DNA from: an uncultured Bacteroidales bacterium
GTDB lineage: Bacteria > Bacteroidota > Bacteroidia > Bacteroidales > UBA932
Direction: 5' to 3'
Assembly (NCBI GenBank): GCA_900320365.1
Contig: ONSC01000007.1
Span: 1,477-65,476 of the forward strand
Length of the DNA: 64,000 nt
Numbering within the stretch: the stretch's first letter is position 1; each line of letters starts with the position of its first letter. A program made the position numbers and the translations under genes. The notes beneath the pieces are model-generated. The model was given only the letters and a program-made list of their open reading frames with translations, did no database searches and was not told where the DNA came from. Below, in pieces: positions 8,169-63,359 of the stretch.

Positions 8169-9437
8169 ATGGACAGAAATGAAATAGAGATAATGGCTCC
8201 GGCGGGAAACTTCGAGTGTCTCACCGCCGCCATCGAGGGTGGAGCTGACTCAGTCTATTTCGGTGTGGGCCGCCTTAACATGCGCTCACACTCCGCCAAC
8301 AACTTTTCCCCGGAGGATCTTCCGGAGATCACCAGGATTTGCCGCTCCGCCGGAGTCAAGACATATATGACCCTCAACATTGTGCTTTATGATAATGATC
8401 TGGAGCCGATGAGGGAGGCGCTTGACGCCGCTAGAAAAGCCGGAGTGGACGCCATCATCGCATCAGACATGGCGGCGATCCAGTACTGCAAGGAAATCGG
8501 CATTGAAGTCCATGCGTCAACTCAACTGAATGTATCCAATATAGAAGCGTTAAGATTCTGGGCAAGGTTCGCCGATGTCGTGGTTCTAGCCAGGGAACTC
8601 AGTTTGCCACAGGTCAAAGCCATCAGTGAAGCCATTGAGCGAGAGAGGATTACAGGACCTTCCGGGAATCTGGTCAGGTTAGAGATGTTCTCACACGGGG
8701 CCCTTTGCATGGCCGTGTCAGGTAAATGCTACCTCAGCCTCCATGCCTATGGGAAATCAGGCAACCGCGGTGAGTGCTACCAAATCTGCCGCCGGGGATA
8801 TGAGGTAACGGATCTTGAGACAGGATACAAACTGAACATCGACAACAAATATATCATGTCTCCTAAGGACCTATGCACCATAGAGTTCCTGGACAAGATG
8901 ATAGACTCCGGGGTAAAGGTCTTCAAAATCGAGGGCAGGGCGAGATCTGCCGAATATGTGAAGAGGACATCGGAGTGCTATCGTAAAGCCGCTGATGCGG
9001 TCTGTGACGGGACATTCTCCCCAGAACTGGGAAAACACCTGAAAGACAAGCTTTCCGAAGTCTTCAACCGAGGATTTTGGGACGGTTACTATCAAGGTGC
9101 CAAATTGGGAGAATGGAGTGAGATATACGGCAGCCATGCCCGCAGGAGGAAGACTTATGTCGGAAAAGTCACCAACTGGTACGACCGCCTCAGCGTCGCC
9201 GAGATTCTTATTGAGTCTTATTCGATAAAGATAGGAAATGAATACCTGGCAATAGGCCAGTCCACAGGGGTGTATGAAGGAAAGGTGGATGAGATAAGAG
9301 TCGACCTTAAACCAGTCATGGAGGCCCTTAAAGGCGATCTATGCTCGATACCGGTCTCCTTCCCGGAGGATTGGAAAGGTGACCGTAAGCTTCGTAGAGG
9401 GGATAGGATCTACCTCTGGGAAGTGGACGGCGAATGA
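8169..9437 (+). CDS. peptidase U32 family protein
   Basis: 422 aa. EIMAPAGNFECLTAAIEGGADSVYFG, ...MFSHGALCMAVSGKCYLS and ...FKIEGRARSAEYV are typical U32 (collagenase-like / RlhA-TrhP-UbiU family) motifs. Confidence 0.85.
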   Translation: MDRNEIEIMAPAGNFECLTAAIEGGADSVYFGVGRLNMRSHSANNFSPEDLPEITRICRSAGVKTYMTLNIVLYDNDLEPMREALDAARKAGVDAIIASDMAAIQYCKEIGIEVHASTQLNVSNIEALRFWARFADVVVLARELSLPQVKAISEAIERERITGPSGNLVRLEMFSHGALCMAVSGKCYLSLHAYGKSGNRGECYQICRRGYEVTDLETGYKLNIDNKYIMSPKDLCTIEFLDKMIDSGVKVFKIEGRARSAEYVKRTSECYRKAADAVCDGTFSPELGKHLKDKLSEVFNRGFWDGYYQGAKLGEWSEIYGSHARRRKTYVGKVTNWYDRLSVAEILIESYSIKIGNEYLAIGQSTGVYEGKVDEIRVDLKPVMEALKGDLCSIPVSFPEDWKGDRKLRRGDRIYLWEVDGE

Positions 9438-10336
9438 GAGAACCGTCTAGGTCCCTCTATTGAACGCCAATAATCAGAATCGAAATCTGAAGGGTGCTTG
9501 TAGGGGCCTTCGTGATCAATTATGAACTCTAGATAGGTTATCTTGTACCCCTGCGCCAGAAACATCTTCTCATAAAACGTCTGAACCTCGAATAATGCTG
9601 ACACGCACCCGTCGGGAGGAGGTGTCCTCCCGGCAACCGTGGCCACCCTCGGCCACGTAAGAGGGGGGACCGCCGGCGAAGCCGGTGGTGGGGTCCGCGA
9701 AGCGGACGTTGAACGGGAGGACACCTCCTCCGACGGGGCACAGCCGTAGAGGTCGGTCGTAGCGGCAAGGATGGTGAGATTGTTTTCGATGGCTACGGCC
9801 TTTGAATATTCATGAAGGAAACGACTGTCCGTCTTGAGATGGATGACCCCGCCAGGCTTGAGGAACTTACGATAACGCTCAAGGAATAAAGGACTTGTCA
9901 GCCTGGAATTCTCACTTTTCAACTGAGGGTCGGAGAAAGTCAGCCAAATTTCGGAAACCTCGCCTGGACCAAAGAAAGCCTCGATGAACTCTATCCTCGT
10001 ACGGAGGAAAGCCACATTGGGAAGATTCTCCTCCGTGGCCGTCTTGGCACCTCTCCAAAGTCTCGCGCCCTTGATGTCGACCCCGATATAATTATTCCCG
10101 GAAACCCTTTTCGAAAGGTCAATCGTGTACTCCCCTTTGCCACAGCCGAGTTCCAGGACTATCGGTTGATCTTTCTCGAACATTGTCGAGTTCCAATGAC
10201 CTTTAACAGGATGGTCATTGAGCCGCAACCCTAAAGAAGGATCACCGCTCTTATCCAACACCGCTGAAGCGTCAGGCTGGAGAAGGCAGGAAAAAGTCTC
10301 ATTCTCCGCGAATTTCCTAAGTTTATCGTGTCCCAT
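9410..10336 (-). CDS. trmB: tRNA (guanine-N7)-methyltransferase carrying a 47-codon in-frame foreign insertion
   Basis: MGHDKLRKFAENE..., IVLELGCGKGEYT, VDIKGARLW, EIWLTFSDPQLK and GGVIHLKTDS are TrmB motifs. At 308 aa it is longer than usual because of the GC-rich block at 9602-9742 (see findings). The 3' end overlaps the convergent U32 gene by 28 nt. Confidence 0.85.
   Translation of the reverse strand: MGHDKLRKFAENETFSCLLQPDASAVLDKSGDPSLGLRLNDHPVKGHWNSTMFEKDQPIVLELGCGKGEYTIDLSKRVSGNNYIGVDIKGARLWRGAKTATEENLPNVAFLRTRIEFIEAFFGPGEVSEIWLTFSDPQLKSENSRLTSPLFLERYRKFLKPGGVIHLKTDSRFLHEYSKAVAIENNLTILAATTDLYGCAPSEEVSSRSTSASRTPPPASPAVPPLTWPRVATVAGRTPPPDGCVSALFEVQTFYEKMFLAQGYKITYLEFIIDHEGPYKHPSDFDSDYWRSIEGPRRFSHSPSTSQR
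9602..9742. repeat. GC-rich palindromic multi-hairpin element (copy 1), in-frame inside trmB
   Basis: About 72% GC by my count. Terminal inverted repeats at 9605-9632 and 9714-9741. Five internal hairpins. A block of about 32 nt is shared with 63002-63032 on the opposite strand. Confidence 0.7.
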
Positions 10337-24023: not shown

Positions 24024-24941
24024 ATGGCGACAGAGTTTCCCTCAGATAGGTGGAAAGACTACGAGCTTATGGATTCCGGAGACGGGATGAAGCTCGAGCG
24101 GTTTGGTGGTTACGTGCTTTCAAGACCTGAACCCAAGGCCTTGTGGAGCAAGGAGTTGTCCCAAAAGGAATGGGACTCGGCCGCTCACGTGGTTTTCACT
24201 CCGGGAGCCGGTTTCGGCAAAGCCGGAAAGGAAGATAGCGGCACTTGGGACCGACGGAAGGCCATGCCAGACCAATGGTGGATCAAATATAGGTTGGCCA
24301 CCGGAGACTCCACGATGAATCTGAGGCTGGGGCTGACCTCTTTCAAGCATGTTGGAGTATTTCCGGAGCAGGCCGCTAATTGGGAATATATATTCCGGAA
24401 CACTTCAGAGATAGCCGCTTCCATGGATCAGCGCCCGAAGGTGCTTAACCTTTTCGCATACACCGGTGCGGCATCGCTGGCAGCGAGAGCCGCGGGAGCC
24501 GATGTCACTCACCTTGATTCGGTACGCCAGGTCGTTACCTGGGCGCATGAGAACCAGGACCGCAGTGGCCTGGACGGCATACGCTGGGTGGTGGAGGACG
24601 CCATGAAATTCGCGAAGAGAGAGGCCCGCAGAGGGAATGTTTATAACGGAATAATCCTGGATCCACCCGCCTATGGTCATGGCCCGGACGGAGAGAAATG
24701 GAAGCTTGACGAGTGCTTGTTTGAAATGATGCGTAATGTCGGTGCGATTCTGGCTCCGGAGAATAGCTTTATGGTTCTCAACCTCTACTCCAACGGATTC
24801 TCCGCTGTCCTCGGGGAAACTGTTGTCCGTCAGGCGCTTGGACTTAAAGCAGATATCCCGCTCGACTCTGGTGAACTCGCCCTCAAGGACAAATTCGGCA
24901 AAGTCCTCCCGCTCTCCATCTTCGTCCGCCTCAGAAGATAA
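24024..24941 (+). CDS. class I SAM-dependent (RlmI/RlmK-like) methyltransferase
   Basis: MATEFPSDRWKDYELMDSGDGMKLERFG..., NLFAYTGAASLAAR, ...GIILDPPAYGHG fits the PF10672-type rRNA methyltransferase fold. The ORF-track start at 23943 overlaps pgk and is rejected. Confidence 0.7.
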   Translation: MATEFPSDRWKDYELMDSGDGMKLERFGGYVLSRPEPKALWSKELSQKEWDSAAHVVFTPGAGFGKAGKEDSGTWDRRKAMPDQWWIKYRLATGDSTMNLRLGLTSFKHVGVFPEQAANWEYIFRNTSEIAASMDQRPKVLNLFAYTGAASLAARAAGADVTHLDSVRQVVTWAHENQDRSGLDGIRWVVEDAMKFAKREARRGNVYNGIILDPPAYGHGPDGEKWKLDECLFEMMRNVGAILAPENSFMVLNLYSNGFSAVLGETVVRQALGLKADIPLDSGELALKDKFGKVLPLSIFVRLRR

Positions 24942-58073: not shown

Positions 58074-60557
58074 TTAAATACCTTTACGGGCGTGCAGACG
58101 CATCTGGGCGACAGTTTGGTTGCTCGTGGGGACATAGTCTTTAAGAGGAACGATCTTCTCATTGATCGCATCGAGGAACCATGACGGCTGAGGGAAGAAG
58201 GCTTCCTCAAGCTCGTGGCAAGGAGTGATCCAGTTGCGGGAACCAAGCACCACGGGAGCGGCATCGAGATAATCGAAGGCCATCTCTGAAATGTTGGCCG
58301 CAAGGTCGTTGAGATAAGAGCCGCGGGCGCAGGCGTCACCGGCGATGATGATGCGTCCGGTCTTCTTGACAGACTCGATAACTTTGTCGTAGTTGAACGG
58401 CACGAGGGAGCGGGCGTCGATAACCTCAGCCTCCATACCATACTTCTCCTTGAGGATGTCCGCGGCCTCAAGAGCCCTGTAAAGAGTGGCTCCAATGGTG
58501 AGGATAGTGATATCCTTTCCTGCCCTCTTGATGTCAGGCTCACCGATCGGAATCTCGTAATAACCTTCCGGAACTCCACCCTCATGGAACTTCTCGGCGA
58601 TTCCGTAAAGACGCTGACTCTCAAAGAATATGACAGGGTCAGTGCCCTGAAGAGCGGCGTTCATGAGACCCTTGGCATCGTAAGGAGTGACAGGGAAGCA
58701 AACCTTCAAGCCAGGAATGTGGGTGCAGAGGCTCGTCCAGTCCTGACTGTGCTGGGCACCATACTTGGAACCAACTGAAACTCTGACGACTACAGGCATC
58801 TTGAGAATATTCCCGGACATTGCCTGCCACTTAGGAAGCTGGTTGAATATCTCGTCTCCGCAACATCCGAGGAAGTCGCAGTACATGATCTCAGGAATCA
58901 CGCGGCCGCCGCACATAGCATAACCGATGGCGGTTCCGATAATGGCCGCCTCAGCGATCGGGCTGTTGAACAGACGGTGATACGGAAGCGCCTCAGTAAG
59001 ACCGCGATAGACAGCGAAAGCACCGCCCCACTCACGATTCTCCTCGCCATAGGCGATAAGGGAAGCGTCCTTGTAGAAACGATCCACGATAGCCTCGAAG
59101 ACTCCGTCGCGGAAGTTGTAGGATTTCATTGAGCTGACCGGTTTGCCATCCTTATCGAGCCAGAAACGCTCCTTGCCGGCTATCTGCTTGACCCTCGGAT
59201 TCTCCTCGAGAGGCATAAGCACATCGGGCTTGGCGTTGGAAAGGGAGTCAATGCTCTGGTTGGAGAACATCATCTCTCCAAGAAGCTCATCTTGCTTCAC
59301 AAGATCCATCCTAGGGGAAACCTCCTCATCGATAGCGAGTTTGTAGCACTCGAAGATGTTGGAGTTGACCTCGGCGCGGATAGCGTCAAGGGCAGCCTGG
59401 TCGGCCACGCCAGCCTCAATCAGCTTCTTTCCGAAGGCGACAATGCAGTCTTCCTTCTCCCAAGCCTCAATCTCTTCCTTGGTGCGGTAAGAGCTCTGGT
59501 CGGACGGGGAATGGCCGCTGTAGCGGTAAGTCACGACATCCAGGAGGGCCGGTCCCTTCTTCTCGAGAAGATAGGCCTTCTTGCGATAGAAAGCGTCTAT
59601 GACAGCGAGGGGGTTGTATCCGTCCACTCTCTCGGCGTCCATGGCGTCAGCCTTGAATCCCGCGCCCAGACGAGCAGGGAAGGTGTAGCCCATGGTCTCA
59701 CCCTTGGTCTGACCACCCATGGCGTACTGGTTGTCCATAACGTTGAACAGAACTGGAAGGCCACCCTTCATGTCACCCTCCCAGAGGGTATTGAACTGGT
59801 CCATAGAGGCGAAAGTCATACCCTCGAGCACAGGGCCGCGAGCCATGGCACCATCACCAAGGTTGGCGACAACAATACCTTTCTTCCTGTTGACCTTCTT
59901 GTAAAGAGCCGCTCCAACGGCGATCGAGCCGCTACCACCGACGATGGCGTTGTTCGGATATATTCCGAAAGGAGTGAAGAAGGTGTGCATAGAACCGCCG
60001 AGTCCCTTGTTGAAACCGGTTGTGCGGGCGAAAATCTCAGCCATGGCTCCATAGAGCAGGAAGCGGATTCCGAGTTCCTTTGTGTCAGTCCCGGAATATG
60101 CCTTCTTGGCCACATTCAGTGTGGCACCGCCCCAGAACTCTTCCATAACCTTCTTGAGTTCATCCTCAGGAAGGATCTGAATGGAGCGGAGTCCCTTGGC
60201 GAGAATCTCACCGTGGGAACGATGGCTTCCGAAAATGAAGTCATTGGTGTCAAGGGCATAAGCCATACCTACCGCAGCGGCCTCTTGGCCGGCGGAAAGG
60301 TGGGCGGGACCTGGATTGTTGTATGCGACACCGTTGTAACCTCCGGTGGTCTTGACGAGGTTGAGCATGGTCTCGAACTCACGGATGTAGGACATATCCC
60401 TGAATATCCGGAGAAGATCCTCTTTGGAGAAACGGCCGTCCTTGAGCTCTTCCTTGACGGTCTTGTTGTATTTCATTACCGGAATGACCGGGAGTTTGAG
60501 CTCATGTTCCTGGGGACGCAGTGTGACTTCAGGATCGATATATAGTGCTTTTGGCAT
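58074..60557 (-). CDS. 2-oxoacid dehydrogenase E1 component, fused alpha and beta subunits (TPP-dependent)
   Basis: 827 aa. The alpha part has ...GPAHLSAGQEAAAVG...GSHRSHGE...NLGDGAMARGPVLE. The beta part has ...FNSPIAEAAIIGTAIGYAMCGGR...VVRVSVGSKYGAQHSQD. Confidence 0.85.
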   Translation of the reverse strand: MPKALYIDPEVTLRPQEHELKLPVIPVMKYNKTVKEELKDGRFSKEDLLRIFRDMSYIREFETMLNLVKTTGGYNGVAYNNPGPAHLSAGQEAAAVGMAYALDTNDFIFGSHRSHGEILAKGLRSIQILPEDELKKVMEEFWGGATLNVAKKAYSGTDTKELGIRFLLYGAMAEIFARTTGFNKGLGGSMHTFFTPFGIYPNNAIVGGSGSIAVGAALYKKVNRKKGIVVANLGDGAMARGPVLEGMTFASMDQFNTLWEGDMKGGLPVLFNVMDNQYAMGGQTKGETMGYTFPARLGAGFKADAMDAERVDGYNPLAVIDAFYRKKAYLLEKKGPALLDVVTYRYSGHSPSDQSSYRTKEEIEAWEKEDCIVAFGKKLIEAGVADQAALDAIRAEVNSNIFECYKLAIDEEVSPRMDLVKQDELLGEMMFSNQSIDSLSNAKPDVLMPLEENPRVKQIAGKERFWLDKDGKPVSSMKSYNFRDGVFEAIVDRFYKDASLIAYGEENREWGGAFAVYRGLTEALPYHRLFNSPIAEAAIIGTAIGYAMCGGRVIPEIMYCDFLGCCGDEIFNQLPKWQAMSGNILKMPVVVRVSVGSKYGAQHSQDWTSLCTHIPGLKVCFPVTPYDAKGLMNAALQGTDPVIFFESQRLYGIAEKFHEGGVPEGYYEIPIGEPDIKRAGKDITILTIGATLYRALEAADILKEKYGMEAEVIDARSLVPFNYDKVIESVKKTGRIIIAGDACARGSYLNDLAANISEMAFDYLDAAPVVLGSRNWITPCHELEEAFFPQPSWFLDAINEKIVPLKDYVPTSNQTVAQMRLHARKGI

Positions 60558-60568
60558 GGTTTGACTTA

Positions 60569-61945
60569 TTAAATTGTGAATGATGTTTCTTTAATGATCT
60601 CTGACACGGTAGGGTGCGGGAAAACCACCTCCTGAAGTTGCTCAAGAGTCATCTCTGTCTCAATAGCGACACAGGCGGCGCTTATGATCTCGGAGCAGGG
60701 GTTGCCAAGCATGTGGACACCCAGGACCTCATGGTACTTCGCCCCGACAATCACCTTGCATATTCCCTCTCCCCTCTCATTCTCAGCCACGAAACGGCCG
60801 GCATAAGCCATAGGCAGCTTAACCACCTTATAGTCAACGCCTTTCGCCTTTGCCTCGGCCTCGGTGAGTCCGACTCCAGCGACCTCAGGATTGGTGTAAA
60901 CCACTCCGGGAATGGCATTGTAGCGCATCCTATCCTCTTTTCCGAGAATACTATTGACAGCAACCTCACCTTCACGGGAAGCAGTGTGGGCAAGCATTGA
61001 GAACCCTGTAACATCACCGGCGGCATACACACCGGGAACATTTGTCTTCATCTTCTCGTCCACCTTGATTCCGTAAGGTCTTCCCGCGGGATTGAGAGCC
61101 AACTCAACACCTATATTCTCAAGGCCGAAGCCCTGGAGATTGGCCCTACGGCCGACACTGACCAGGATCTTATCACCACTTACACGGCAAACCTTGCCTT
61201 CGGGATCCTCGTATACGACGGTATTGCCCTCAATTCCAGTCACCTTGCAACGCAGGCAGAACTGGACACCTTTCTTCTCATACTGCTTTTGGAGCATATC
61301 GCTGATCTCGTCATCAAGAGGACCAAGAATCTTCGGAAGCATCTCAACCACAGTGACTTTTGTGCCAAGTGTGCTGAAGAAAGCGGCGAACTCCATACCG
61401 ATGACACCGCCTCCGATCACAACCAGCTCCTCAGGGCGCTCGGTCATGTCCAGGATCTCACGATTGGTCACGATTACGTCACCAGCCTCTTTCAGTCCAG
61501 GGAACGGAGGGACCGCGGCCTCGGAGCCAGTGCAAATCAAAAGATTCTTGGCCGCGTAGACATTCCCGCCAGCCTCGATCTTGATGCCCTCGCTGTCACG
61601 TCCCTGGATTGTGGCGTTCTCAGCCACGACCTCGACCTTATTACCCTTCATCGCGGCTTTCACACCTCCGACAAGTTTCTTGACAACCTTGTTCTTGCGG
61701 GCCACGATCTCATCATACTTGAACGAGGGATCGTTCACATAGACTCCGTAATGGTCGCCAGTCATGGCGTAATTGTAAACCTTGGCGCTGTAAAGGAGAG
61801 TCTTGGTCGGGATGCAACCCTCATTGAGGCACACTCCGCCAAGCGACTTCCTCTCGAATAGAACCACCTTTAATCCAGCGGCTCCCGCCCTTTCGGCGGC
61901 CACATAACCACCGGGGCCGCCACCGATAATCGCTAAATCGTACAT
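60569..61945 (-). CDS. lpdA: dihydrolipoyl dehydrogenase (E3)
   Basis: 458 aa. YDLAIIGGGPGGYVAA, redox-active GGVCLNEGCIPTK, and C-terminal HPTVSE. Confidence 0.9.
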   Translation of the reverse strand: MYDLAIIGGGPGGYVAAERAGAAGLKVVLFERKSLGGVCLNEGCIPTKTLLYSAKVYNYAMTGDHYGVYVNDPSFKYDEIVARKNKVVKKLVGGVKAAMKGNKVEVVAENATIQGRDSEGIKIEAGGNVYAAKNLLICTGSEAAVPPFPGLKEAGDVIVTNREILDMTERPEELVVIGGGVIGMEFAAFFSTLGTKVTVVEMLPKILGPLDDEISDMLQKQYEKKGVQFCLRCKVTGIEGNTVVYEDPEGKVCRVSGDKILVSVGRRANLQGFGLENIGVELALNPAGRPYGIKVDEKMKTNVPGVYAAGDVTGFSMLAHTASREGEVAVNSILGKEDRMRYNAIPGVVYTNPEVAGVGLTEAEAKAKGVDYKVVKLPMAYAGRFVAENERGEGICKVIVGAKYHEVLGVHMLGNPCSEIISAACVAIETEMTLEQLQEVVFPHPTVSEIIKETSFTI

Positions 61946-61973
61946 ATCTGAATTTGAATTATATCCTTATTCG

Positions 61974-63359
61974 TCAGAACTCAATGTCCAGAGTCTCTAT
62001 CTCTGTCGCCACTTGTTTGAGGAAACGGGTGGCCTCACCGCCATCGAGAGCCCTATGGTCATAGGTCAGGGAAAGACCCAAGTAAGGCACAAAAGCGATG
62101 ACTCCGCCGCCAAGATCCTTCGGACGAGGGACAATGGTGCCGACTCCGAGAATCCCGCTCTGGGGAAGGTTGATAACGGGAGTGAACCACTCGACACCGA
62201 AACCACCGAGATTGGAGACCGTGAAGGACGCCGCCTCAGAAGACAGCAAGTCAGGATTGATACTACCCTTACGGCAATCATCAGCGACCTGCTTGAGAGC
62301 CTTGCTCAATTCCGTTATAGAGAGATTCTCGGCGTGCTTGATACAAGGGACCATAAGCCCGCGCTCAGTGTCAACCGCACATCCTAGATTGACGGTGTTG
62401 AATATCCTCATGGAATCGCCGAGGCAGTGGGAATTGACTTTAGGAAATTTTTGGAGAGCCTTGATCACCGCGAAACAGACGAAGTCGTTGATGGTGACAT
62501 TGGCGTCGATCTTTCCTTCTTCCAGAGCTTTCTTGGCTTTCTTTCGGAGTGCCTGGATCTTTCTCGCGTCAGCGCCGAGCATATGGGTAAGTTGCGCGGA
62601 GTTCTGCAGGGAATTGTACATGCTCTTGGCGATGAGCTTGCGCATATTGGACATCTTCTCCACCTGGAACTCGGAGCCTTCTCCGGCGATGTCGGTGTGG
62701 GATGGCTTCCGTGTCTTGAGGTCGCTTCCCTTCACCATGCCGGCGAGGCCTGTCCCACTCGCTGGCGCCCGCAGTCCACCCTCAGCCATCATGGCCTTGG
62801 CGAGGCCTGATCTTGGAGAAGCCGCGGCAGCTATGACATCCCGCTCAATCACCCTGCCTCCAGGGCCGGAACCCGCGATTTGATTCGGGTCCACGCCTTT
62901 CTCTTCCGCCAGACGCTTGGCACGGGGTGAGACTCCGGCATTGGAGGATGCTCCCCCAGACACCGTCTCGCTCCGCTCGACCCCACCGTTCGCTTCGCTC
63001 ACGGTCCCCCCTCTTAACGTGCCGAGGGTGGCAGTGGTGTCCTGGGGGACATCCTCCACTGCCGGAGCAGCCGCGGCGGCGGGAGCCTCACCTCCGGGAG
63101 CGAACTCCTCGAAAGACTCCCCGGGCTCGCCGATGACCATCACGTTGGTCAGGCACGGAATCTCGTCATTATCATTGAAAAAGCAGGCTAAGACGGTCCC
63201 CTCGAACTTCGATTCCTCGTCAAATGAAGCCTTGTCGGTCTCATAGCTGAAAAGGATGTCTCCGACGGCGACCTTGTCGCCCACTTTCTTCTTGAACTCA
63301 GTTACGATGCAGCTTTCTACAGATTGCCCCTGCTTGGGCATTATCACTACTTGCGCCAT
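61974..63359 (-). CDS. dihydrolipoamide acyltransferase (E2) with foreign in-frame insertion in the first linker
   Basis: 461 aa. Lipoyl domain (…FSYETDKASFD…), E3-binding domain (VSPRAKRLAEEKGVDPNQIAGSGPGGRVIERDV), and catalytic domain ending LTYDHRALDGGEATRFL. Confidence 0.9.
   Translation of the reverse strand: MAQVVIMPKQGQSVESCIVTEFKKKVGDKVAVGDILFSYETDKASFDEESKFEGTVLACFFNDNDEIPCLTNVMVIGEPGESFEEFAPGGEAPAAAAAPAVEDVPQDTTATLGTLRGGTVSEANGGVERSETVSGGASSNAGVSPRAKRLAEEKGVDPNQIAGSGPGGRVIERDVIAAAASPRSGLAKAMMAEGGLRAPASGTGLAGMVKGSDLKTRKPSHTDIAGEGSEFQVEKMSNMRKLIAKSMYNSLQNSAQLTHMLGADARKIQALRKKAKKALEEGKIDANVTINDFVCFAVIKALQKFPKVNSHCLGDSMRIFNTVNLGCAVDTERGLMVPCIKHAENLSITELSKALKQVADDCRKGSINPDLLSSEAASFTVSNLGGFGVEWFTPVINLPQSGILGVGTIVPRPKDLGGGVIAFVPYLGLSLTYDHRALDGGEATRFLKQVATEIETLDIEF
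62935..63066. repeat. GC-rich palindromic element (copy 2), in-frame in the E2 inter-domain linker
   Basis: About 30-nt terminal inverted repeats (62935-62964 and 63036-63065). The central block 63002-63032 matches the reverse complement of 9642-9672. It contains the TTCGCTTCGCTCA core at 62989-63001. Confidence 0.7.

Follow-up and report, generated by a model that had tools for sequence, protein, structure and literature searches.

GC-rich in-gene palindromic repeats with a conserved fold in rumen and gut Bacteroidales

The standout case of selfish DNA inside bacterial coding genes is that of the Rickettsia palindromic elements (RPEs), which a 2024 review treats as exceptional for their frequent in-frame insertion; the one named miniature inverted-repeat transposable element (MITE) of the Bacteroidales, BrickBuilt, is strictly intergenic (PMC10969869). 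In this study, we analyzed a palindrome of 132 nt that is read in frame in a gene for the E2 acyltransferase of a 2-oxoacid dehydrogenase (E2) in an uncultured Bacteroidales bacterium. The gene lies on contig ONSC01000007.1 (assembly GCA_900320365.1), of which we studied a 64,000-nt stretch, called the window; coordinates refer to it unless a locus (L number) is named, and orthologous proteins carry P numbers. On balance, we regard the E2 insert as one resident member of a family of palindromic repeats in rumen and gut Bacteroidales that are non-autonomous and defined by their structure; the mobility of the family is suggested by its dispersal and by presence/absence polymorphism. Among palindromic repeats that lie within genes, this family constitutes a new and well-defined variant, whose conserved fold is unusual. 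A full-text literature search found no description of it, and such a family of structured GC-rich in-gene repeats is apparently undescribed.

Like the Bacteroidales elements, RPEs are dispersed palindromes of about 100-150 bp that often lie in frame in unrelated housekeeping genes and are translated at permissive sites (PMC10969869), and no transposase is known for them. The Bacteroidales palindromes are likewise dispersed, in frame in unrelated genes and translated, on a scale comparable to or greater than that of RPEs, and the same lifestyle appears to have arisen independently in an abundant gut and rumen lineage. However, RPEs belong to Alphaproteobacteria, whereas the present family occurs in Bacteroidota and is GC-rich in a genome of 50% GC. 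Its ends are hypervariable, with only a multi-hairpin, pseudoknotted centre conserved, and its two orientations are about equally frequent, with copies that flip in place. With a GC content of 67-73% and hosts in another phylum, the family is very unlikely to be homologous in sequence to RPE-1 to RPE-10. Ogata et al. (2000) reportedly give further details of RPEs.

The architecture of the family, with variable ends and a conserved centre, is the reverse of that of MITEs, REPs and attC sites, all of which conserve their ends. REP, BIME and REPIN sequences, associated with RAYT transposases, resemble it as short, multicopy, non-autonomous palindromes that form long hairpins, but REPs conserve their stem sequence and a GTAG/CGTC end tag (PMC3733652) and are almost always intergenic. 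In the Bacteroidales family, the stems are locus-specific and unconserved, about two thirds of the copies are genic, the ends carry no GTAG/CGTC tag, and no RAYT-like gene lies near the copies. Integron attC sites, the ends of IS200/IS605 insertion sequences (ISs) and CTX phage attP share with the family a definition by secondary structure and not by sequence. In the family, too, the stems vary yet stay complementary and one strand folds better than the other, which points to recognition as single-stranded DNA; the folding of attC and IS608 as single strands is well known. However, attC sites have conserved R''/R' ends around a variable centre and flank gene cassettes beside an integrase, whereas the present hosts are housekeeping genes, and IS200/IS605 ends are two different hairpins flanking tnpA/tnpB. 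Neither RYYYAAC/GTTRRRY ends, a cassette and an integrase nor IS200/IS605 genes were found at or near the copies.

Intragenic invertons of Bacteroides are inverted-repeat-flanked segments in genes that occur in both orientations and give two protein variants (PMC10028968). We found an inverted-repeat segment within a gene in both orientations at E2 (L114), trmB, polA, miaA and GH3. An inverton is a switch at a single locus that a dedicated recombinase flips within a population, while the segments described here belong to a dispersed repeat and flip between lineages. Their in-place inversions inside genes will be picked up by inverton-finding software. The double-hairpin elements of fungal mitochondria are a familiar further case. 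Together with them, GC clusters of fungal mitochondria (PMC4478555) and PARCEL coding repeats (PMC2996958), GC-rich or palindromic mobile modules that may sit in frame, share with the Bacteroidales family a definition more by hairpin structure than by sequence. They differ in being organellar or from Mollicutes, unrelated in sequence and simpler in fold, without a pseudoknotted core under a long locus-specific stem.

The E2 insert and its relative in trmB

The E2 element occupies positions 62935-63066 and is a palindrome of 132 nt with a GC content of 67%, against about 50% for the genome. We call the strand bearing the core pattern the A strand and its complement the B strand. The features of the two copies in the window are as follows.

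62935..63066 (-), whole E2 element; its A strand (with CCACCCTCGGC..AAGAGGGGGGAC) is the minus strand and the E2 sense strand
63036..63065 (-), 5' arm of the outer stem P1 (CCGGCAGTGGAGGATGTCCCCCAGGACACC), specific to the E2 locus
63017..63035 (-), P2 hairpin, ACUGCC[ACCCUC]GGCA(C)GU; its loop (63024-63029) pairs with GAGGG at 63009-63013
63005..63016 (-), conserved junction J2/3, UAAGAGGGGGGA; it holds the 3' strand of the loop-junction pairing, and its TAA closes one frame
62986..63004 (-), P3 hairpin, CCGUGAGCGAAGCGAACGG, with a GAA triloop on a C-G pair and G.A/A.G mismatches alongside
62981..62985 (-), conserved junction J3/4, UGGGG, from the family alignment
62966..62980 (-), P4 hairpin, UCGAGCGGAGCGAGA, from the family alignment and covariation
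62935..62964 (-), 3' arm of P1 (GGTGTCTGGGGGAGCATCCTCCAATGCCGG), the inverted-repeat partner of the 5' arm
61974..63359 (-), host gene, 2-oxoacid dehydrogenase E2 acyltransferase, 461 aa (Pfam: lipoyl aa 4-67, E3-binding 144-175, catalytic 230-456)
9608..9739 (+), second family member, in trmB (host ORF, that is, open reading frame, 9410..10336, minus strand); its A strand is the plus strand, antisense to the gene

A preliminary description of the window had reported terminal inverted repeats of about 30 nt in the E2 element, 44 in-frame codons in the linker between the lipoyl and E3-binding domains, and a related but inverted palindrome in trmB sharing its central block, read on the other strand, and flanking accccacc and gcttcgc segments in the same order. 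All of these points were borne out. The inverted-repeat arms (62933-62964 and 63036-63067) are 32 nt each with a complementarity of 84%. The element begins at a codon boundary (gene offset 294), and its 44 codons encode aa 99-142 (PAVEDVPQDTTATLGTLRGGTVSEANGGVERSETVSGGASSNAG), which Pfam places between Biotin_lipoyl (aa 4-67) and E3_binding (aa 144-175). Most simply, the insert would be a tolerated extension of an already flexible linker and not an adaptation. The trmB copy is read as TrmB residues ~204-249, inside the methyltransferase domain.

The homology of the two copies is evident at the nucleotide level. A 30-nt core, GGTCCCCCCTCTTA-N4-GCCGAGGGTGGC, is present at exactly two places in the window, namely 63003-63032 (+) and 9642-9671 (-), and none was expected from 100 shuffles of the window. 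Pairwise alignment placed the blocks GACCCCACC and GCTTCGC, common to both copies, in the same order. Both copies fold as a long stem enclosing three small hairpins, with folding z-scores of -6.5 to -8.8 against shuffles. A covariance model was built from 42 copies, namely 40 from other genomes and both window copies; it scored the latter at 105.7 and 74.1 bits, values that are partly high by construction since both are in the model. The runner-up in the scan of the 64 kb reached 13 bits, and the window contains only two family copies. The host genes both lie on the minus strand, and the core strands and the covariance model agree that their elements are mutually inverted.

A conserved fold beneath locus-specific stems

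Alignment of more than 100 copies showed a locus-specific outer stem around a conserved core of ~75 nt in every copy, and the contrast between differing ends and a conserved centre, noted earlier for the two window copies, holds across this set. The order on the A strand is P1, an inner stem end (..ACC), P2, J2/3, P3, J3/4, P4, CGGU and the second P1 arm. P1 comprises ~20-35 bp, and its sequence differs at nearly every locus; in some subfamilies, copies in different genes have ~16 nt of the inner arm in common, with outer arms that are specific to each locus yet complementary. The family form of P2 is NNUGCC[ACCCUC]GGCA(N)N'N', and the purine-rich junctions are UAAGAGGGGGGA (J2/3) and UGGGG (J3/4). 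P3 opens with CC../..GG and varies from 9 to 57 nt across the family, and P4 takes the form YCG(AGCGAAGCGAG)R or the shorter CCGCGAAGCGG. Both P3 and P4 are typically capped by a GAA triloop on a C-G pair, with tandem G.A/A.G mismatches; the GCGAAGC motif is a DNA minihairpin of exceptional stability. In one copy (L052:7560-7692), the P3 loop is enlarged by an insertion of 57 nt, and P3 would thus seem to be a site at which cargo is tolerated.

Covariation supports the fold. Across 42 diverse copies, 88.8% of the cells in four helices are paired, compared with 31-43% when the partners are slid, and 191 double-sided changes were observed against 65 in shuffles. For the pairing between the P2 loop and J2/3, we scanned metagenomes for copies whose P2 loop is one position off CCCUC, leaving J2/3 free. 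The scan yielded a large sister subfamily (L116-L235, e.g., L130, L148 and L172) with the P2 loop GCCCGU, J2/3 GAACGGGGGGACC and J3/4 UGGGA; this subfamily, too, lies within long ORFs in either orientation (14 A and 14 B among 50 copies). Loop and junction change together in five complementary versions (CCCUC/GAGGG, CCCGU/ACGGG, CCCAU/AUGGG, CCCAC/GUGGG and CCCGC/GCGGG), the exceptions being one G.U variant and two uncompensated single mutants. On a mixed alignment of both subfamilies, the loop-junction helix is 96% paired and has two covarying positions. Because this pairing interleaves with P2, the two can form only in a single strand, where they either coexist as a pseudoknot or alternate. 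The loop-junction pairing may thus be a pseudoknot or an alternative hairpin, the connecting loop of 3-4 nt being too short to say which. The combination of hypervariable ends with a conserved, covarying and pseudoknotted centre is unlike any architecture that we found described, and suggests that the element is recognized by its structure, probably as a single strand of DNA.

Distribution and copies inside genes

We scanned species-representative genomes with the exact pattern CCACCCTCGGC-N5-AAGAGGGGGGAC and found at least 113 stretches; among the matches listed, these come from ~55 metagenome-assembled genomes (MAGs), with up to at least seven copies in one MAG and several per genome. This supports the dispersed family postulated from the two window copies. 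Almost all carriers among the matches listed are Bacteroidales MAGs from the rumen or gut of cattle, goat, buffalo, deer, yak, reindeer and horse, and they stem from independent studies and assemblers. As the genome scan and the locus set were picked by the exact core pattern, the apparent conservation of the core in them is inflated; the sets of E2 and trmB orthologues were picked without it, and the motif is still present in them. Over 6 kb, the stretch L063 (MAG RGIG2644) and the window share 97% identity. The window thus derives from the same species as this MAG or from a very close one, in which further copies occur (L039, L051, L057 and L087). Viral contigs, phage records and plasmids, searched by a viral contig scan and blastn, gave no family match. 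Likewise, the window had no hits at the gathering threshold against Rfam 15 (including twister, pistol, hatchet, hammerhead, HDV-like and HEARO), and raising E to 10 over 62880-63120 produced just two chance-level hits (E 2.2 and 7.9). A peptide-profile search with the A-frame insert against 5.8 billion proteins returned only ORF fragments of 38-87 aa and no host proteins.

Copies in L010, L031, L040, L057, L072, L076 and L087 lie within a few bases of contig ends. The near-identical core of ~75 nt can break MAG assemblies and probably does so where these are made from short reads. In MAG RGIG3675, four loci (L045, L055, L075 and L077) have common arms (GGGGCAGTCGGGGCGGGGACC...), and arm segments are tandemly reiterated in their flanks, giving repetitive GC-rich coding sequence.

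Host genes were identified from the ORFs of the loci and Pfam. In about two thirds of the analyzed copies (72 of 109), an ORF of 200 aa or more runs through the element. At an ORF cut-off of 150 aa (77 copies), the A strand is sense in 40 and the B strand in 37, in agreement with the earlier suggestion that both orientations are tolerated as coding sequence. A Pfam match to ordinary host-gene families was obtained for 30 of the 33 spanning ORFs tested, and in ~20 host ORFs Pfam matches flank the element on both sides or a single domain is split by it. The hosts include GH92, DNA polymerase I (PolA), MatE, RsmB/F, GH3, FtsK, Fer4/CCG proteins, Fmt, a MiaB-like radical SAM enzyme, DsbD, two adjacent PmbA/TldD paralogues, MiaA, KsgA, TrmO, IspH, ArgC, RibF and an S-adenosylmethionine (SAM) methyltransferase, in addition to E2 and TrmB. 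The inserts are ~40-55 aa long, rich in Gly, Ser, Ala, Pro, Thr, Arg and Glu, and located at linkers or surface loops. Compared with homologues in the PDB, IspH has ~49-50 extra residues where its 51-residue element sits, a match in length indicating that both arms are extra sequence, and ArgC has 61 extra residues around a 44-residue element. The family thereby offers a natural experiment, with sites in more than 25 essential enzymes that tolerate flexible inserts of 40-55 residues in two unrelated frames.

The preliminary description also proposed selection to keep host ORFs open, and the reading frames bear this out. The dominant frames are ..ATLGT(L/V)RGGT.. on the A strand (33 copies) and ..VPPL(N/T)xPRVA.. 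on the B strand (25 copies), and the conserved TAA invariably closes one of the A frames. Genic copies are stop-free at 81-93% in three of the six frames and at 40-42% in two more, the sixth (with the conserved TAA) being at 0. Non-genic copies are stop-free at 27-35% in four of the five open frames and at 68% in the fifth, compared with 36.5% in shuffles. The GC content of the arms is 0.66 in genic and 0.55 in non-genic copies (p = 8e-4). These differences in stop content and arm composition indicate that selection acts on the copies sitting in genes. Lengths modulo 3 taken from fold-defined boundaries are uncertain by 1-2 nt, and ORF continuity was used instead. The host frames are flip-compatible in 62% of cases against 49% for the other frames, a weak difference given the uncertain element boundaries.

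Turnover at orthologous sites and possible modes of spread

Orthologous sites were found filled, empty, partly deleted and inverted. Most E2 relatives with at least 84% aa identity carry the element at the same position, in two widespread allele types distinguished by its orientation, which is uniform within each of three 90%-identity protein clusters. E2 orthologues without the insert, which had been suggested earlier for comparison, do exist: P0070, P0082 and a two-lipoyl Cryptobacteroides E2 have ordinary Ala/Pro linkers instead. Outside the element, the E2 gene of L114 (P0005) and that of the window share 96% identity, yet the element of L114 is inverted. A one-base stem bulge lies on the opposite arm in the two genes, indicating that the whole palindrome was flipped. 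The arms of the two genes share 78% identity, a change on one arm being matched on the other, and P3 measures 28 nt in L114 and 19 nt in the window. By our own estimate, the arm divergence of 22% against 4% in the flanks is roughly neutral if a change on either arm is copied to the other.

Two groups of E2 orthologues have composite elements. P0018, P0020, P0033, P0036 and P0039 have the outer arm PAGEDAPSGT, as in the inverted allele type, followed by the inner arm GGTIPPET and an A-oriented core; these layered arms look like replacement or nesting within an older copy. In L115:301-1740 (E2 P0065; also P0044, P0049 and P0119), ~105 nt of other GC-rich hairpins replace P2, J2/3 and P3, while J3/4, P4 and the right arm are intact and the gene is still in frame.

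The 29 trmB orthologues, chosen by TrmB homology alone, include empty sites (P0162 and P0181), filled sites in either orientation and with different core subfamilies, mosaics (P0161 and P0164) and one-arm remnants. The form of P0189/P0179 keeps the first bases of the core and is therefore read as a deletion; judging from the protein alignment and the DNA of L058, slippage between short direct repeats is its likely route. Both orientations were found at orthologous sites in trmB, polA (L015/L053), miaA (L041/L043) and GH3 (L019/L092/L113). In two empty-site comparisons (L002 vs window 24397-24434, and L019 vs L113), neither arm is present. The first concerns a SAM-dependent methyltransferase gene that is filled in L002 (3689-4705), the orthologous sites in the window and in L032 being empty with no arm.

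The preliminary description called the element a mobile or recombinogenic repeat. Dispersal and presence/absence polymorphism at orthologous sites suggest that it is mobile. Evidence on the form in which the element acts comes from mismatches within the arms. After removal of related arms, those on the A strand were biased (G.T 80 vs A.C 42, and G.A 54 vs C.T 12), in the same direction in sense, antisense and intergenic copies, the tests for the latter two being weak (p 0.013-0.08). As the bias is alike across the orientation classes, it does not follow host transcription. Together with the interleaved pairings, it suggests that the folded A strand, as single-stranded DNA, is what selection or templated repair acts on; we consider this form the likeliest substrate for spreading or homogenizing the core. 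Copies persist long at orthologous sites, where they are inverted, partly deleted or have modules exchanged.

We propose that the element spreads, or is exchanged among copies, via a single-stranded DNA form of one particular strand. A trans-acting enzyme would read the fold of that strand rather than end sequences, as with integron attC and IS200/IS605 ends. Arm complementarity could be maintained by hairpin-templated correction, selection for the fold or both, and in-place inversion could occur through recombination across the arms. Quasi-palindrome template switching, by which such correction would proceed, is a known process. We also considered an origin in which the host sequence already supplied one arm and the other arose from it as an inverted copy. 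This is disfavored by the empty sites, which have neither arm, by the PDB homologue of IspH, relative to which the whole element is extra, by the P0189/P0179 remnant, read as a deletion, and by the absence of general arm-flank similarity. Arm-like direct repeats are present in the adjacent flank of only ~5% of copies. Two cases hint at a pre-existing arm, an element-free E2 (P0070) that resembles the right arm of the window copy and a trmB (P0169) that keeps one arm, and outward growth of the palindrome from such an arm is a minor possibility.

Several observations weigh against a mobile, structure-read repeat. Clustering of ~700 neighboring ORFs of the 113 loci revealed housekeeping genes only, with no transposase, recombinase or recurrent gene. 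Inspection of the flanks of 36 non-genic copies found no consistent direct repeats, that is, no target-site duplication, and the family alignment has no conserved ends, so known cut-and-paste chemistry does not fit. Except in a few subfamilies with common inner arms, no recent identical paralogues have identical full-length arms, and whole-unit movement is thus not directly documented. The unpaired core junctions are invariant at orthologous sites with ~75%-identical flanks, although part of this is ascertainment; neutral decay is insufficient to explain it, and gene conversion among copies, re-insertion or a host-level function would be needed. The orientation of copies relative to replication, assessed by local GC skew, gave no signal but is uninformative, as the proxy failed its own sanity check.

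A more speculative and less likely reading is that the core, with its pseudoknotted P2, two minihairpins capped by GAA triloops and invariant junctions rich in G, under a stem of any sequence, is the folded single-strand substrate of an undescribed recombination or transposition system, or is itself a catalytic or ligand-binding nucleic acid. If such a system exists, the core would be copied or exchanged into existing palindromes and new sites without end sequences or target duplications, and invertible, recodable segments inside essential genes would be a side effect. The covariance model and the sequence set provide a concrete start for finding the responsible enzyme.

Alternatively, the element could be a host-level module. 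Its conserved, pseudoknotted core would then be a structured DNA or RNA motif used by the cell, for example to bind a protein, for processing, or as an invertible switch within genes by which linkers are recoded, and it would be kept by selection and not by selfish spread. We consider this rather unlikely. The conservation of the unpaired junctions and of five covarying helices at vertically inherited sites across species would be expected of it, as would the flip between very close E2 alleles, which resembles the intragenic invertons of Bacteroides (PMC10028968), and intergenic copies often have A-run/T-run ends like those of bidirectional terminators. However, the housekeeping genes that carry insertions are unrelated and have no theme in common, close relatives thrive although their sites are empty or partly deleted, and the encoded peptides are low-complexity linkers in two unrelated frames. 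The uniform orientation within 90%-identity protein clusters gives no hint of rapid switching, and no recombinase gene lies near the copies.

An ordinary MITE, i.e., a deletion derivative of an IS moved by a transposase that reads terminal inverted repeats, is improbable. Small size, inverted-repeat ends, several copies per genome and the lack of any coding capacity of its own are all MITE-like, but here the terminal repeats differ at almost every locus and the centre is conserved, the 36 non-genic copies show no target-site duplication, and neither an IS with matching ends nor a transposase was found at the 113 loci. The phage and plasmid collections also gave no match.

Less probable still is an element acting as RNA (a self-cleaving ribozyme, an intron-like element or a translational bypass) that is removed or skipped and leaves the host protein unaffected. 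Small ribozymes and riboswitches typically have folds of this kind, compact and pseudoknotted, with several helices, a closing stem that varies and junction nucleotides that do not, and yet no Rfam family matched even at E up to 10. Genic copies are stop-free, keep the downstream frame and have Pfam matches on both sides in ~20 cases, whereas non-genic copies are not stop-free; a stop-free pattern limited to genic copies is to be expected only under translation, and not of an intron-like or bypassed element. Moreover, both orientations are found in mRNAs, and the mismatch strand bias is independent of the sense strand.

That there is no element at all, but a conserved or convergent Gly/Pro/Ala-rich linker or an assembly artefact, can practically be dismissed: E2 linkers are of low complexity by nature and the insert peptide is conserved among close E2 relatives, but this reading is refuted by the significance of the core at the DNA level, by the family scan, in which more than 25 unrelated genes, as well as intergenic stretches, hold the same nucleotide core on one strand or the other, in MAGs from many independent projects, by the alignment and covariance model, and by E2 orthologues without the element, whose ordinary Ala/Pro linkers also dispose of a linker conserved as protein in distant relatives without a nucleotide palindrome.

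The surroundings of the two window copies gave some minor observations. The trmB ORF overlaps by 28 nt (window 9410-9437) at its 3' end with the 3' end of a convergent ORF (8169-9437, 422 aa). In the trmB orthologue P0179, 15 residues close to the N terminus of TrmB are duplicated in tandem (NDHPIKGRWNGEMFH; alignment columns 40-54), a feature unrelated to the element. On the E2 side, window 58074-63359 (-) is a compact 2-oxoacid dehydrogenase operon consisting of E2 (61974-63359), E3 (60569-61945) and a fused E1 alpha-beta (58074-60557, 827 aa). An antisense ORF within the E1 region (59292-60545, 417 aa) is almost certainly spurious.

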